Shown here: positions 56,368 to 63,911 of the stretch, piece by piece
How the letters are laid out: each line of letters starts with the position of its first letter
Position numbering within the stretch: the stretch's first letter is position 1
Origin: Escherichia phage MN05
Sequence record: NC_070987.1
Strand: one strand, 5' to 3'
Length of the DNA: 64,000 nt
Notes under the pieces: generated by a model
What the model was told of the DNA's origin: nothing
The model's input: only the letters and a program-made list of their open reading frames with translations
Databases searched by the model: none
Translations under genes and position numbers: made by a program

Positions 56368-57189
56368 GATATTCACCTTTCAATTGTAAGGGCACTATTG
56401 CCCCGCTCGCTATGAGCCTTTAAGTCGCCATTGACTTATCAATATCCACTCAATGTTAAGTAAATATTGATAAGCGGAGCGGTCTTATCAGGAGTTAACC
56501 TTGCCGCTCCCTTATCCGTGATGTTTCATCTGGTATCTTTAATTAGTCGCTATAAACAAAGCCGACCTGATAGCGATGATCAATCATCACAATAAGGCTA
56601 TGCGTCCGATTCTATTTAATTACATTGATGTAACCATCGGCAATATCGTTTACTTTGCTTTCGCTCCCGCCTATCCTTTTGTATTAGCTCTTTATCGCTA
56701 GTCATCGCCCACTACGGGATACTGTTGCGAAAAAGTCACTAACCGCCTAATATTCCGGCGTTTTATATCTTTCGGCAGGTTTACTACATAACCCGACTAT
56801 GTACTTCCGTCATAAGACGAATATCAAGCCGTTCACATCGTAAACGTTCGCATTAAACCTTATTGTTAAATAGCAATTTGCCACTGTTTAACCATTCCCC
56901 GCCGCTCTCAATTGAGCGTTAATTCGTCGGACTTGCCTACCCTGATTAGCTTCTCTCATTGTAGCACCTTGTTAGCGATGGCCGCCGCTACCCTTAACCG
57001 TGGGCGATTAGCTTAAACCGTTGCGTGTACTCAATGAATCCGCTTATCAGTGGTGACGTTTCCAGTTAAGGGAATGTAAAACTGTTTACCCTGATAATTT
57101 AGGGAGTTTTACGCCGTTTTATCTGGTATGCTTTCCGATGGTTATTATCTTCCAGCATATGCAACCGATATAGGGGAATGTTTAAATTG

Positions 57190-58234
57190 TTAAAGAGCGG
57201 TAAATCTATCAAACGTGCTTTCTCACGTTATGCAACTGTTAGCCGTTGTTACGCTTTTCACTGAAGCGGTGTTTTGCTTGAGTGTGCTCATTATGGACCA
57301 TGATGTTTTCGCCGTCAACCGCTTTTTTAATCTTTTTCGTCGTTCCCACTATTGGGAGGATATATCAACCAGCTTTGTTTGATTGAAGATCAAGCGATAA
57401 GGCTTAACTCATGATTCACATTGTTAAAGAGCGTTTAGCCTTTTATAGTGTCTGCTAATCACTGCATCATTAAAGGCTTACTTATTCATTAACGGGGCGC
57501 CTAATCCCGAACTGCCCGCTGCACTATGTGCCACCTTTCCCGCGATACGTTGATTTGGGAACTAGTTAACGTTGTTTTGTTAACTTGTGGTTAGTATGAA
57601 CTACCTTAACCACGTTTGCAACCTCTTTTTTATCATCTTCTTTTATTCTTTTCCCTTATCTCGCGTGACTCTATGCGAAAGGGCAAGATGATAAGTCTGA
57701 TTTGTCTTTTAGGAATCTAGTACGCTTTCAAGCATTAATCTTTTGAAAGTATCGAACAAATAAGGCTTATTGATATTGCTTATTGTCCGCCTGCGTCACG
57801 TATGAATCAGGAATCAATTCTACCGATTAACTGGGCGCCTTATAGTAATGACGTCGCCGCCACCCGTAAGACAAATCATATTTTTAAAGAGCGTGCGGCT
57901 CACATAACACCGCTTGATAGTCAGTTAACCTATGACTATTCAGGGGCATGGTATCCGTCTGCCTACGTCTGACTTGCTTCACTCACTAGGGAGTTACTTG
58001 AGCGGTCATCTTGTCTTTCTAAGCTCATTATAGGTTAGGCTTTCCAGTTGTCAAATACTTTTTCAAGTATTTTTTCACTTTCCAGCCTGATTTTTAAAGA
58101 GCGGGGCAAGTTTCCTTGCCTTGTATGTTTTACATCGTACCCGATGAAAACCAGTATACGCCATCTTTCACGGAGCGCAATAGGGCAAAGCAAAATATTT
58201 TAAACTTTTTCACTATAGGGAAGATAAAAGAGCG
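57190..58234. repeat. Dispersed direct repeats of TTAAAGAGCG (four exact copies and one degenerate) in an ORF-free region
   Basis: Copies at 57190, 57424, 57884 and 58094, plus AAAAGAGCG at 58226; each preceded by AT-rich ATT(G/T)T. Confidence 0.5.
57290..57318 (-). promoter_or_regulatory. Sigma70-like promoter candidate (minus strand)
   Basis: TTGACG-N17-CATAAT with an upstream A-tract; no ORF of 60 aa or more for about 900 nt downstream. Confidence 0.35.
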
Positions 58235-58934: not shown

Positions 58935-59426
58935 TTACTTACTGGCCTTGATGCAGTTGGCTAGGTTAATGTAAGCGGTATAAACAGCATTGCCCGCATT
59001 ATTGTAAACAGTAGTCGCAATCATCGACTCCTTAACCGGGCCATAACTCACTAGGTTGGTTACAGCTTTAACGTCTTTATAACGTTTTACAGTGCCATAC
59101 GTCACCATATCCGCATCGTTATCAGTACGCTTAAGCACCAGATCATTGTTAGGCTGATTATCTAGCGTTTTAGATTGAAAGAGAACGCCTTCACTAGTTA
59201 CGTTGCTAAATTTCACTTTTAACACGATAGAAGCACCGTCACTATCAGCACCGTTACAAATCATCCAACCTTTATTGATGGAACTAGCGAAGACACTAGC
59301 GGCATCAGTTGCAGAAATAGGGCCAGCGATAGCCTTATCAGAAAGAGATGTTACCAGCGCACTAACACCGATCGCGGCAATCAGTGCATAACTTGCCAGA
59401 TTAATCATCTGCATCGGTTTAGTCAT
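58935..59426 (-). CDS. Secreted / periplasmic protein (signal peptide)
   Basis: Track ORF trimmed to the Met preceding a hydrophobic signal sequence (..ALVTSLSDKAIAG). Confidence 0.45.
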   Translation of the reverse strand: MTKPMQMINLASYALIAAIGVSALVTSLSDKAIAGPISATDAASVFASSINKGWMICNGADSDGASIVLKVKFSNVTSEGVLFQSKTLDNQPNNDLVLKRTDNDADMVTYGTVKRYKDVKAVTNLVSYGPVKESMIATTVYNNAGNAVYTAYINLANCIKASK

Positions 59427-59479
59427 TTGTGAAGCCTCATTGATATGTATTAGAAAGGGATATAATAGGACACGCTTTT

Positions 59480-59671
59480 TCACATTGCAACCATCTTTCT
59501 AACTTTCTTTCTACTAAAAGTAGCGCCATTAAACTTACTAGGTTTGTTTCTTGGGCTTAACTCGCTATCAGTGAACGATTCGACTACTTCACAAACAATC
59601 AGAACAAGTAAAGGAAACACTACAGCCATTGCCATCATTACTAGAATAATCATTTCTATCACTCCAATCAC
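59480..59671 (-). CDS. Small membrane protein
   Basis: Hydrophobic N-terminal segment. Confidence 0.4.
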   Translation of the reverse strand: MIGVIEMIILVMMAMAVVFPLLVLIVCEVVESFTDSELSPRNKPSKFNGATFSRKKVRKMVAM

Positions 59672-59775
59672 TCAATTGATAGGCTTCAATTTACTACCAC
59701 TTAACAAGGAAGACAAGCGACCACGGGTAAACTATTTCTACTATATAGGACGGGGCATACAACCGCAGAACAGAC

Positions 59776-60171
59776 CACGGGGAAACATGCCAGATAGTGC
59801 GGTAATAATATACCACTTAAATAATTAGTTAACTATTAATGTAAACTCATAAAAGAAAAAGACCAACAGAACGCTGAAAAAGAAAAGAAGAAAAAGAATA
59901 TAATAACTGTTAATTACTATCTTCCACTTAATTAATACATACATCATTATTGCACTCATAATCATTACTATTGAAACTATTTACATTCAAACTATGGGGA
60001 GCTGCGACTGTTACATGACGGTATTATATCGCCTTAAACTATTCTTACAGTGGGGGAATTATACAGTGCTAGCCTTTCTCTCACTCTTTAAAGGGGAACT
60101 AAATAAACGGGTAGGTAATGAATAGGATGGTATACACGGGGAAAGAATAACGGGGAGTAGGCACGGGGAAA
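59776..60171 (+). repeat. Direct repeats CACGGGGAAA (three exact copies and related ACGGGGA variants) in the divergent intergenic region
   Basis: Exact copies at 59776, 60135 and 60162; variants at about 59722, 59749, 60149 and 60179. Confidence 0.5.
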
Positions 60172-60369
60172 GGTTGGAACACGGAAGAAGGTGTAAAGGC
60201 ATTGCCAATAACCATTTTTTATTTGAGGACTCCCCCTTTTTGAGAAACACGCGGCGAGCGGCTAGCCCCACTCGGTCAAATCAGAATTTTAAACAGATAT
60301 ATACATCTTTATTTTTTTTATAAATCTGTATTTTAAACTCTTATATATATAAGCTTAAGAGAGGACTTA

Positions 60370-60531
60370 ATGAATCTAATTAAAGTATTTAGACGGATGA
60401 AGTGTAAGCACAATTACTATCTTCTTCGTAAAGCTTACGGGGATGAAAGAATACATGGTCTCTACCTATCAACATGGAGATGTAGGGAATGTGGTAAGTT
60501 GAGATTCAGTACGTGGGTGGATAGGCCTTAA
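60370..60531 (+). CDS. Small zinc-ribbon protein (53 aa, below the track cutoff)
   Basis: SD AGAGAGGA; C.H...CxxC; first gene of the plus-strand block. Confidence 0.4.
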   Translation: MNLIKVFRRMKCKHNYYLLRKAYGDERIHGLYLSTWRCRECGKLRFSTWVDRP

Positions 60532-60798
60532 CATGACATGGCCTTTATGAAGCCCCCTTTAAACCCCTTCCCTTTATCAGCGATCACGGGTTGTTGGTAT
60601 GAGGGTGCCTTTACGGGTAGGTCTTATGATGTGCCCTTTATACTTTTATTCAGAGGATAAGAATATGAGGTTTTTAAAAGAACTACACTCCTTGATTTAT
60701 AAGGACATAGTGTACTCAGTATCCCGCAATGCATGGTTCTACCAAAAAGGTGGCAACGGTGAATGGGTAGATTGAATCTTATTCAGAGGAGATGAATT

Positions 60799-61053
60799 AT
60801 GAATTTAGTATTAGACTTTTTATCAGAGATAGTGCCTAGGTTCAGAACGGAGACATATGCTTTCGTGGTCAATAGTGACTCTGAAGAAGGGATGGAAGCT
60901 ACATGCTTAGGTCGACTTGTTGACTTAGATGATGAAACAGATTTTGATATTACAATTGATGTGAGTAGTTTAGGTTGGCTCTTCTTCAGAGCATTCCGCA
61001 CTTACAAAGTAGAAACATACAAAGATTATAGCAAGGGAGATGCAAATGAATAA
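60799..61053 (+). CDS. Hypothetical acidic protein
   Basis: Track ORF. Confidence 0.45.
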   Translation: MNLVLDFLSEIVPRFRTETYAFVVNSDSEEGMEATCLGRLVDLDDETDFDITIDVSSLGWLFFRAFRTYKVETYKDYSKGDANE

Positions 61054-61704: not shown

Positions 61705-61734
61705 GTGTTGTTGATAATGTAGAAGGAGTATAAA

Positions 61735-62208
61735 ATGTTTGGAGAAAAAGGAGAACTCACGCCTGCACAGGTAGCTGAGATTACAGGAAGATTACCCGGA
61801 GTAACGGAAGAACTTGAAAGCCGTGGTATGAACCCAAGCAATGGGAAGTTTCAAAAGGGAAATAAATTCGGACGACCCAGAGGTAGTAGAGGTAAACTGA
61901 CACAATTAATGTTGGACCGTGTTGCTGCAAGTCATTTGTCTCCTGATGAAGTGTTAATTCAAATTTACGAAGATCCTAATATTCCACCTGATCTTAGATT
62001 CAAGGCTGCATCAAAAGTTGCAGATCTGGTATATCCTAAGGCGGCCTCTGTTGAAGTTAAGATTGAGGAAGAGAATGTAATCAACGAAGAATCATTGAAT
62101 GCACAAATCAAGGACTTCTTGACTGGAGCACTTGGTATCGACGTTATGCCTCCAGAAGAAGACAACTCTGAGGACGCTGAAAAGGGGGAGGAAGCGGACG
62201 AGAGTTAA
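61735..62208 (+). CDS. Putative terminase small subunit
   Basis: Position immediately upstream of the large terminase; N-terminal HTH-like segment; acidic C-terminus. Confidence 0.4.
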   Translation: MFGEKGELTPAQVAEITGRLPGVTEELESRGMNPSNGKFQKGNKFGRPRGSRGKLTQLMLDRVAASHLSPDEVLIQIYEDPNIPPDLRFKAASKVADLVYPKAASVEVKIEEENVINEESLNAQIKDFLTGALGIDVMPPEEDNSEDAEKGEEADES

Positions 62209-62369: not shown

Positions 62370-63911
62370 ATGTCATTAGATAAACAAATTTATGAAGCTC
62401 TAACTGGTAACAACCTTAGTGTAGATGAAAAGAAAGCACTATTGAATATGTTGAAAGAGCGTGACCAATGGAGGAAGTATAATAGGATTTTGTCTTTCAA
62501 GGCGTATGACTTCCAAAAGAAATTTTATGCAGCAGGATTGAAGCATCGCTTTAGATTCTTGTGTGCAGCGAACCGTGTTGGTAAATCTTACAGCGAGGCA
62601 TACGAGTTTGCTTGTCATGTCACAGGTCGCTACCCAACTTGGTGGACAGGATATAAATTTAAAAGACCTATCTTAGCATGGGCAGTTGGTATTACAGGGG
62701 ATTCCACAAGGAAAGTATTGCAAAAGGAATTGTTTGGTACACCTATCGGAAAGGATACAAATTTATTGGGGACAGGTGTCATTCCTCGTGATGCTATCGT
62801 CATTGACACGATAGAACGAGATGGTAATAAACTTCAAATCGTACAAATCAAACATCAAAATGAAAGAGGAGAATTTGACGGTTTAAGTACATTAGAATTC
62901 CGTTCAACCCAACAGGGTGAACACACATTGATGGGTGCAACAGTTGACTACATTTGGTTAGACGAAGAAGATCCATACGAGTCTATGGCTATATTCGCAC
63001 AGTGCGTCACACGTACACTCACAACTAAAGGTCTAGTTACAATTACAGCTACACCAGAGAACGGTTTAACTGAACTGGTGGATAAATTTATGAAAGGTGA
63101 AGGGGATGAGAACACAGGTTCTCTGTATTTCCAGAATGCTTCTTGGTGGGATGCTCATGCAGACCTAGGTGGGCACATCACTGACCAAGATATAAAAGAT
63201 ATGACTGAAGGTATTCCAGCGTGGCAGTTAGAGATGCGTTCGAAAGGTATGCCATTGTTAGGAAGTGGTTTGATATATGATGTATCGGATGACACAATTA
63301 AATGTGAACCATTCGAAATTCCTGATACGTGGAAACGTGTCTGTGCAATTGATATTGGTATTGATCACCCAACTGCTGCTGTTTGGACAGCTTACGATGC
63401 AAACACGGATACTATCTATGTTTACGACTCATATAAAGAAGGTGGCTTTACTCCAGTGTATCATGCTCCAGCTATTAATGGTCGTGGTCAGTGGATTCCT
63501 GTCATCCTACCGCATGATGCGGACAATACTGAGAAAGGTAGTGGTTCATCTGTTGCTCAATTCTATAAGAATGCAGGAGTTAACGTACAGAGTGAGACCT
63601 TCTACAACAAAATTGGAATGGATGGTAAAAAGAACTTCTTTGTAGAACCGGGAATCACAGATATCCGAGAAAGAATGATGAGTGGACGCTTTAAAGTCTT
63701 TAACACAGCCGCTAACGCTAAGCTATTCGAAGAGAAAGCTAGATATCACCGTAAGGTTGGTAAGATTATTAAAGAACATGATGACTTAATGGATGCAATG
63801 CGCTATTCAGCGTGCTCTGTTACACATCGTGGTCGCTCTAAGCATGATGTTAGCTACGGAAGCGCTTCTTTGTATGAGGCAAACGTAAGCAGATGGAATC
63901 AGAGCTACTAA
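62370..63911 (+). CDS. Terminase large subunit
   Basis: Walker A AANRVGKS, Walker B VDYIWLDEED, C-terminal RNase-H-like nuclease region; SD GGAGGAAG. Confidence 0.8.
   Translation: MSLDKQIYEALTGNNLSVDEKKALLNMLKERDQWRKYNRILSFKAYDFQKKFYAAGLKHRFRFLCAANRVGKSYSEAYEFACHVTGRYPTWWTGYKFKRPILAWAVGITGDSTRKVLQKELFGTPIGKDTNLLGTGVIPRDAIVIDTIERDGNKLQIVQIKHQNERGEFDGLSTLEFRSTQQGEHTLMGATVDYIWLDEEDPYESMAIFAQCVTRTLTTKGLVTITATPENGLTELVDKFMKGEGDENTGSLYFQNASWWDAHADLGGHITDQDIKDMTEGIPAWQLEMRSKGMPLLGSGLIYDVSDDTIKCEPFEIPDTWKRVCAIDIGIDHPTAAVWTAYDANTDTIYVYDSYKEGGFTPVYHAPAINGRGQWIPVILPHDADNTEKGSGSSVAQFYKNAGVNVQSETFYNKIGMDGKKNFFVEPGITDIRERMMSGRFKVFNTAANAKLFEEKARYHRKVGKIIKEHDDLMDAMRYSACSVTHRGRSKHDVSYGSASLYEANVSRWNQSY

Follow-up and report, generated by a model that had tools for sequence, protein, structure and literature searches.

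A one-strand ACGGG repeat array at the probable genome-end junction of the phiEco32-like Escherichia phage MN05

The non-coding region at positions 59672-60369 of a 64,000-nucleotide stretch of Escherichia phage MN05 DNA (record NC_070987.1; "the window" refers to this whole stretch) very probably represents the joined physical ends of a linear phiEco32-like genome, merged by assembly. It contains one copy of a direct terminal repeat (DTR), recognizable by its homology to the 193-bp repeat of phiEco32, and short repeats with an ACGGG core that run over the DTR and both of its flanks, all of them on the plus strand. These repeats probably bind a protein. The statement taken as a whole, that this is a concatemer junction whose array is probably used in terminase recognition and end formation, seems to us about evenly balanced between holding and failing.

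The probable joined ends of a linear genome

The window derives from a phiEco32-like coliphage (genus Kuravirus, subfamily Gordonclarkvirinae), and its segment 59400-60700 is 88-90% identical to phages 172-1 and NJ01. The phiEco32 record carries an exact 193-bp repeat at both ends, of which position 1 corresponds to 60071 and position 193 to 60263 in the window, with 89.5% identity between the two repeats (228-bp alignment spanning the repeat). A search with 60071-60263 retrieved 85 phage records at 82-98% identity, several of which have a second copy of the DTR at the opposite end. The records of phiEco32, SU10, YF01, Paul, WFI101126, CHD5UKE1, and IMEP8 start exactly at the equivalent of 60071, those of ES17, IME267, and KM01 start within one base of it, and the repeat is annotated as a direct terminal repeat in the YF01 and Paul records. 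The 193-bp DTRs of phiEco32 were established via restriction mapping, primer walking, and subcloning (Savalia 2008, as cited in PMC9965538). SU10 has 193-bp repeats and blunt ends, visible as sharp drop-offs of the reads (PMC4281155), while the DTR of Paul was called by PhageTerm, that of YF01 was obtained from full-length nanopore reads, and DTRs of 192-193 bp were recognized by similarity in 30 phages of the group (PMC9965538).

The features of the junction are the following (the slash within a sequence marks the boundary of the DTR):
59672-60070: unique right genome end; the leftward genes are those of the early right arm
60068-60074, plus strand: left-boundary GCT/AGCC heptamer of the DTR, with 60071 as the predicted first base of the left genome end
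60071-60263, plus strand: DTR homolog in one collapsed copy, by homology to the phiEco32 repeat
60200-60241, plus strand: most conserved part of the DTR, CCATTTTTTATTTGAGGACTCCCCCTTTTT, the sole DTR segment that can be aligned with phage EK010
60261-60267, plus strand: GCT/AGCC heptamer at the right DTR boundary; predicted right genome end at 60263
60264 onward (60264-60369 non-coding): unique left genome end; the rightward genes lead to the small terminase (TerS), the large terminase (TerL), and the portal

The genomic context agrees with this assignment. The phiEco32 record starts about 300 bp upstream of its gene 1 and has TerL as gene 7, and the window shows the same gene order of DTR, small genes, TerS, TerL, and portal, with the DTR placed after the last right-arm gene. 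The segment 60071-60263 thus shares with the Kuravirus DTR its length, its first and last bases, and its position between the early genes of the right arm and gene 1, TerS, and TerL, but differs from the phiEco32-type records in that the DTR is present once in the 64-kb window, from which we conclude that the assembly is circularly permuted and that the two terminal copies have been merged in it. In an alignment of 16 junctions, the majority fraction at the left boundary rises from 0.62 before the DTR to 0.89 inside it. The virion molecule would end on one side with the sequence leading up to 60263 and begin on the other with the sequence from 60071 onward, so that each end has its own copy of the DTR. 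The original prediction had seen here a divergent intergenic region of about 700 bp. Its borders stand, with a leftward open reading frame (ORF) from 59671 and a rightward one from 60370, yet it appears to span physical genome ends and not a continuous spacer. For annotation this means that the genome should open at 60071, with 60071-60263 duplicated at the right end, and that a circular map, an "origin" called from GC skew, or a "divergent promoter" reading at this place would be an artefact of the assembly.

The sequence GCTAGCC has just two copies on the plus strand of the window, which straddle both DTR boundaries exactly 193 bp apart. The DTR starts with AGCCTTTC and ends in ...GGCT, and these boundary sequences are kept among relatives: CT/AGCC is found at both boundaries in most of them, and the DTR homolog is 193 bp long in 15 of the 16 compared, with indels inside it that cancel out. 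In IMEP8 there is an exact 193-bp terminal repeat that also ends in ...GCCT/AGCC. The right boundary of phiEco32 reads GCT/AGG, so that the shared core is shorter there. We put forward the identical boundary heptamers, as a hypothesis, as candidate cleavage sites. In the record of EK010, a phage of the genus Suseptimavirus, the ends repeat over about 140 bp (the first ~100 bp of the DTR plus ~40 bp upstream), which is probably an assembly overlap, and the boundary motifs (CT/AGCC ... GGCT/AGG) imply a DTR of about 249 bp, not 193 bp.

Within the DTR, the segment at 60200-60241 corresponds to the highly conserved region described at DTR positions ~130-170 in the YF01 paper (PMC9965538), and the SU10 reads differ in the length of the T-run at its equivalent (PMC4281155). 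ORFs called mechanically overlap the DTR at 60059-60271 (minus strand), 60099-60215 (minus strand), and 60174-60323 (plus strand), and some relatives have hypothetical proteins annotated there. Compensating one-base indels occur among relatives in 60172-60195, and together with the physical ends they argue that these ORFs are not genes; those called across the DTR, such as 60059-60271, are almost certainly spurious.

An array of short repeats on one strand

The three exact copies of CACGGGGAAA noted in the original prediction are indeed present, at 59776, 60135, and 60162, all on the plus strand; these are the only matches in the window, where shuffled sequences yield 0.03 on average and none of 100 shuffles reached three. 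The variants ACGGG(G/T)A that it reported were also recovered. The pattern ACGGGKA has 12 matches in the window, eight of which lie in 59723-60619, all eight on the plus strand; this terminal region holds 8 of the 10 plus-strand copies in the 64 kb. Six of them fall inside 59672-60369, namely the three exact CACGGGGAAA copies and those at 59723, 60107, and 60150, to which a near-variant, ACGGGGC, can be added at 59750. Reduced to its 5-mer core, ACGGG, the motif occurs ten times on the plus strand of 59672-60700 (59723, 59750, and 59777; 60107, 60136, 60150, and 60163; 60437, 60586, and 60613) and never on the minus strand. The DTR thus contains four of the ten copies, and each of its flanks has three:
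59719-59786, plus strand: right-flank block of GACCACGGGTAAAC (core at 59723), GGACGGGGCAT (59750), and GACCACGGGGAAAC (59777, the first exact CACGGGGAAA)
60107-60171, plus strand: DTR-internal copies ACGGGTAGGT (60107), CACGGGGAAA (60135), ACGGGGA (60150), and CACGGGGAAA (60162)
60437, plus strand: post-DTR copy CTTACGGGGATG, inside the coding sequence of gene 1
60586-60622, plus strand: left-flank pair ATCACGGGTTGT (60586) and TTTACGGGTAGGT (60613), 27 bp apart, within the 60532-60664 spacer

The copies of the right-flank block are spaced by 27 and 27 bp and lie 294-348 bp before the DTR, while the internal copies have offsets of +36, +65, +79, and +92, which places them at distances of 36-92 bp to the left and 101-157 bp to the right boundary. 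A second exact 10-mer, ACGGGTAGGT, is shared by the copies at 60107 and 60613. Otherwise the flanks of the copies are unrelated and solely a core of 5-7 bp is common to them; the copies are therefore not simple tandem duplications. Such a cluster is not expected from base composition: in Markov simulations of the whole window the best 1029-bp cluster of ACGGG averaged 3 copies and never exceeded 6. A conservative control, with models trained on the region's own sequence, gave at least ten ACGGG in 0/5000 cases at order 1 and with a probability of 0.004 at order 2, and at least eight copies of the 7-mer in 0/5000. The 60532-60664 spacer also contains five plus-strand copies of CCTTTA (60542, 60556, 60571, 60608, and 60635), interleaved with the two left-flank ACGGGT copies; CCTTTA represents a second short oriented repeat near the left end.

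Conservation and turnover among relatives

Conservation in related phages, on which the original prediction had made its reading of the repeats depend, was found for their number, strand, and position. All 16 relatives (16/16) carry 9-13 copies on the plus strand and none on the minus strand up to 700 bp from the DTR, arranged in the three blocks seen in the window. Their right flanks hold one to four copies at -254 to -382, mostly three and often 27-30 bp apart, and the DTR offsets +36/+65/+79/+92 are identical in 13 of them. The copy at 60437 is conserved in those relatives that carry gene 1. The remaining variation is informative. In Bas92-94, two of the DTR copies have moved by one or two bases (+81/+93) and their flanks have changed (CACGGGATAG, CACGGGAAAA) with the core kept, and the right flanks of EC.W2-6, rybdy3, and SGF2 have gained a fourth, identically oriented copy through an insertion.

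The junction of EK010 extends the comparison to another genus. In BLAST it matches the window only in the final ~60 bp of the DTR and in some short fragments, and it nevertheless contains 14 non-duplicate copies of A[CT]GGG[TGC] on the plus strand and none on the minus strand, with four copies in the right flank spaced 28, 30, and 30 bp apart and four in the DTR at +36, +65, +93, and +108. A mosaic is seen in IME267, which has ACGGG copies in the right flank and the DTR and ATGGGT copies in the left flank, and the general core can therefore be written A-Y-GGG-K. The shifted copies of Bas92-94, those borne by insertions, and the EK010 array point to selection on the motif itself. Since the repeats are conserved in 16 relatives and recur as a variant in a divergent genus, they are probably functional protein-binding sites; the case for a function rests on recurrence, orientation, geometry, and turnover, and the conservation of individual alignment columns is not part of it. 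Some EK010 copies resemble KOPS (GGGTAGGG), but a likeness to Chi (GCTGGTGG) or KOPS (GGGNAGGG), judged by eye, was dropped, as the dominant CACGGGGAAA does not show it.

An exact-pattern scan of viral contigs returned just 7 loci, mostly genomes that were already known, and ACGGG arrays were not found in the distant relatives GAP52, SE131, and LAh_8, the termini of which are not known. Cronobacter phage GAP52 has a gene-free leader (1-1711) upstream of its packaging module, with four perfect DnaA-box consensus sequences (TTATCCACA) on one strand and one on the other, as well as five ATTGAGG copies on one strand. This leader may represent an origin or a terminus element.

The published accounts of the group cover the DTR with its conserved segment at 130-170 and a CCCTTTTTTA repeat (PMC4281155, PMC9965538). 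Those of SU10 and YF01 contain neither an ACGGG array nor its extension into the flanks nor the shared boundary heptamer (PMC4281155, PMC9965538), although the original phiEco32 papers (Savalia 2008; Pavlova 2012) may mention repeats, and a full-text literature search for CACGGGGAAA found no phage-related paper. With respect to the SU10 and YF01 accounts, the strand-locked A-Y-GGG-K array over the repeat and both flanks, its geometry across genera, and the identical boundary heptamers would thus be new.

A possible role in terminase recognition and end formation

A role of the repeats in packaging is possible, at somewhat less than even chances in our estimate. The array would in this case consist of protein-binding sites that mark the junction on replicative concatemers, and its likeliest reader would be the terminase, by way of a PaP3-like small subunit. 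Once bound, the terminase would be directed, in position and orientation, to cut at the GCT/AGCC sites of both boundaries, which are identical and 193 bp apart, and these cuts would provide each packaged genome with a full terminal repeat. The genes next to the junction and those of the putative terminase are:
59480-59671, minus strand: last (rightmost) leftward gene of the right arm, 63 amino acids; PHROG phrog_7482, of unknown function (E 3e-13)
60370-60531, plus strand: gene 1, 53 amino acids, with a CxH...CxxC pattern; PHROG of unknown function
61735-62208, plus strand: putative TerS, 157 amino acids, directly upstream of TerL
62370-63911, plus strand: TerL

The TerL protein is 100% identical to a protein annotated as DNA packaging protein in phage 172-1, 99.8% identical to the TerL of NJ01, and about 40% identical to that of PaP3-like phages. 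A profile of the putative TerS (23 homologs), compared with 177,635 PDB sequences, had small terminases of Pseudomonas podophages as its top two matches, 7JOQ (E 0.0026) and 6W7T, that of PaP3 (E 0.057), with the same core aligned in both. Searches of PDB, Pfam, and PHROG with the single sequence gave nothing specific, and a Foldseek search with an AlphaFold model of moderate confidence (pLDDT 68) gave no significant match. The authors of the YF01 study arrived at the same assignment by HMM comparison (PMC9965538). The TerS of PaP3 is a nonamer with nine helix-turn-helix motifs and binds DNA sequence-specifically (PMC7672466), which would make a multi-site array a plausible substrate. The product of gene 1 shows a zinc-ribbon-like pattern (MNLIKVFRRMKCKHNYY...WRCRECGK) and belongs to no other known family; it is possibly a small DNA-binding protein.

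A close architectural parallel is phage T7. When its right and left ends are joined through a single copy of its 160-bp exact terminal repeat, CCTAAAG is found 13 times on one strand of the junction and never on the other, with 2 copies before, 3 inside, and 8 after the terminal repeat, and its neighbors are the early promoters A0 and A1-A3, as well as phiOL on the left and phiOR on the right. We take these copies to be the SRR and SRL arrays of Dunn and Studier 1983. As in the window, more than 10 copies of a 7-bp core, none of them on the other strand, are distributed over a short exact terminal repeat and the DNA on both sides of it, with early promoters adjoining the repeat. The cores themselves are unrelated (CCTAAAG versus ACGGGKA), the two phages belong to unrelated families, and their terminases and RNA polymerase strategies are likewise unrelated; the likeness is hence one of architecture and not of homology. 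The occurrence of this architecture in two podophage lineages that are unrelated but both have short exact terminal repeats suggests a role in the recognition or the making of ends. The array geometry, conserved across at least two genera of Gordonclarkvirinae, mirrors the T7 arrangement and remains an incremental, largely ordinary addition to a known kind of element, but one useful for phage engineering (rebooting, in vitro packaging, and therapeutic use).

Other packaging systems share single traits with the junction. In lambda cosB (the R sites) and P1 pac (hexamer repeats flanking the cut), short oriented sites beside the cleavage site are read by the small subunit of the terminase or pacase. 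These phages have cohesive ends or package by the headful mechanism and lack a short exact DTR, while the repeats of the window are candidate binding sites. Phage tf, a LUZ24/PaP3-like phage, has the same core at both DTR boundaries on the concatemer, proposed as the core site of the terminase (PMC3517423), as is the case for GCT/AGCC in the window, and the putative TerS profile matches PaP3-type small terminases, as found in LUZ24/PaP3-like phages. The tf boundary sequence, GATATCcc, is unlike GCT/AGCC, one of its ends protrudes whereas those of SU10 are blunt, and the consulted passages of its description report no repeat array (PMC3517423).

A more specific version, doubtful at present, is that the A-Y-GGG-K array acts as a terminus organizer of conserved geometry, a ruler for both cuts, hence the exact length of 193 bp. 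Its elements would be the ~29-bp period of the flank block, the fixed offsets +36/+65 in the DTR, and the identical CT/AGCC sites at a fixed distance, and a ring-shaped small terminase or an end-binding protein (e.g., the zinc-ribbon-like gene 1 product) would wrap the junction. If true, this would offer a testable mechanism for generating short exact terminal repeats, a question open since T7.

Several points weigh against the proposed reading of junction and array as a whole. The ends of MN05 itself, at 60071 and 60263, are placed by homology. The record of phage LAMP has an annotated repeat region at 1-172, thus of 172 bp and not 193, ending at CCCCCTTTTTA, 21 bp before the CT/AGCC site used in the other members; IMEP8 shares part of the divergent right-hand DTR sequence of LAMP (TTCGTCGC.GAG.GCCT) yet has an exact 193-bp repeat. 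Inside the DTR, motif columns are not significantly better conserved than the others (0.94 versus 0.88, p = 0.13), and the best-conserved segment (positions ~130-170), which is the sole part shared with EK010, has no motif copy and could be the real terminase site. The assignment of TerS is weak at the E values given above and with a fold search that was not significant. Moreover, TerS is 92-98% identical across the compared phages, and the proteins of IME267 and EK010 match at 152/155 positions although their DTR copies differ (ACGGGG versus ATGGGT, both of which fit A-Y-GGG-K), which leaves no co-variation between TerS and the core sequence to exploit. Finally, we know of no firmly established function for the T7 repeat arrays.

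Non-coding elements around the repeats

Two non-coding blocks at the right end are as conserved among the 16 genomes as coding DNA, with a mean majority fraction of 0.94 versus 0.53-0.62 for the neighboring non-coding DNA, and the leader of the left arm reaches 0.96:
59765-59830: conserved block A; the third right-flank repeat lies between the inverted arms CCGCA (59767-59771) and TGCGG (59801-59805)
59922-60000: conserved AT-rich block B, mean majority fraction 0.94, partly retained in EK010
60264-60369, plus strand: left-arm leader, consisting of the invariant block AGCCCCACTCGGTCAAATCAGAATTTTAAAC followed by an AT-rich promoter-like element

Block A includes a putative minus-strand promoter running from 59832 to 59805 (TTAACT-16-TATTAT, with TGGTATATT as extended -10). 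The AT-rich stretch that the original prediction had placed immediately before the first plus-strand gene corresponds to 60278-60369, with a GC content of 18.5% against 41.8% for the window; 59806-60000 has 24%. In this stretch a 29-nt promoter-like element is tandemly duplicated (60278-60306 and 60322-60350), as it is in NJ01, EC.W2-6, 172-1, and O18-011, whereas it is single in phiEco32 and most other relatives. The equivalent element of SU10 is given by its authors as a potential sigma-70 promoter, located immediately behind the DTR and upstream of CDS1 (PMC4281155). A promoter consensus scan of 59300-60800 gave 3 matches, one of them inside the region, versus 5.3 expected from shuffles, and a terminator consensus scan gave none in the region.

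Alternative explanations

It is unlikely, although conceivable for the right-flank block, that the repeats are operators through which a phage or host regulator controls transcription from terminal promoters, leftward in block A and rightward just after the DTR. The right-flank copies lie immediately downstream of or overlap the conserved promoter-like element of block A, the DTR copies lie 100-170 bp upstream of the potential promoter of SU10, the left-flank pair sits within the spacer before the next small gene, and the small CxH...CxxC product of gene 1, beside the DTR, may bind DNA. Yet ACGGG[GT]A is not found at the strong internal early promoters at 58054 to 58027 and 57318 to 57290, and the repeats are therefore not general early-promoter elements, nor are they themselves promoter hexamers. 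A uniform orientation on both sides of divergent promoters and a placement 100-170 bp upstream would be unusual for operators and fit a polar process better, and the early promoter annotated in genomes of the SU10 type is situated left of the repeat block rather than beneath it. From the early promoter cluster of the original prediction there remains that promoters are probably nearby, as suggested by the SU10 prediction and the block A element. Quite unlikely, too, is another end-specific factor that would protect or tether incoming DNA ends or control a stepwise entry of the genome. Such a factor would be in keeping with an array that is specific to the terminus, keeps to one strand, and has a conserved geometry, with the lack of co-variation between TerS and the motif variant, and with the small zinc-ribbon-like product of gene 1, of unknown function and encoded right after the DTR; positive evidence for it was not obtained, and the same orientation at both ends agrees better with a unidirectional process on concatemers than with a symmetric protection of ends.

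The candidate iterons or origin of the original prediction fare poorly, and we regard initiation sites of an origin near the genome end, or in a variant preferred start sites of a primase (primer 5'-ACGGG), as very unlikely. Like iterons, the repeats are direct, oriented, conserved, and adjacent to AT-rich DNA (59806-60000 and 60278-60369), but these AT-rich stretches are equally well explained by promoters. The core is much shorter (7-10 bp) than iterons of 17-22 bp with their regular spacing, and its copies are irregularly spaced at 13-29 bp in three blocks ~300 bp apart, over 900 bp in all. The cumulative GC skew has its minimum at ~59.8-60.0 kb, which coincides with the switch in gene orientation and is thus uninformative. 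No initiator-like gene adjoins the array, its neighbors being small proteins without a Rep-family match in PHROGs or Pfam, and a DnaA-box search revealed no cluster near the region; the four perfect DnaA boxes in the leader of GAP52 make origins near here conceivable in the wider group. Furthermore, the flanks appear to lie at opposite ends of a linear virion molecule, so that the "divergent region" is not one locus, and in T7 the same architecture surrounds the terminal repeat and not the primary origin. Highly improbable, in turn, is that the repeats are functionless relics of local duplications in a terminal repeat conserved for other reasons. The motif columns of the DTR are in line with this, and most relatives are close (82-98% DTR identity), so that shared copies are partly inherited. 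But the copies have unrelated flanks around their 5-7-bp core, the cores persist in the poorly conserved right flank (majority fraction 0.53), copies have been gained in insertions and survive shifts of register, and the variant recurs in the unalignable junction of EK010, again with no copy on the other strand. Last, a small structured RNA encoded in the DTR, with the G-runs pairing with the conserved CCCCC-UUUUU segment, appears extremely improbable and was rejected. In its favor were an inverted repeat with the arms AATAACGGGGAGT / ACTCCCCCTTTTT and a sequence at 60116 (TAATGAATA) that departs from the gp36 promoter consensus at one position, but nothing in Rfam matched 59000-61000 at E <= 1, neither strand of the DTR folds more stably than its shuffled versions (z = +1.15 and +0.22), and the consensus fold of 16 homologs is almost without covariation, with the GGGGAGT arm lost in Bas92-94. 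The match at 60116 is one of about 20 one-mismatch sites scattered across the window and is not significant.

Probable early and late promoters elsewhere in the window

The internal early promoters mentioned above belong to the right arm, where about 1.6 kb (56377-58034) are without an ORF of at least 60 amino acids. Strong sigma-70 consensus promoters are found there on the minus strand, at 58054 to 58027 (a perfect TTGACA-16-TATAAT) and at 57318 to 57290, and this region probably corresponds to the three early promoters of SU10 between CDS120 and CDS121. On the other side of the junction, a one-mismatch match to the gp36 late-promoter consensus, TAATGTAGA, is located at 61715-61723, 12 bp before the putative TerS gene, and is identical to the late promoter of SU10 upstream of its CDS4.

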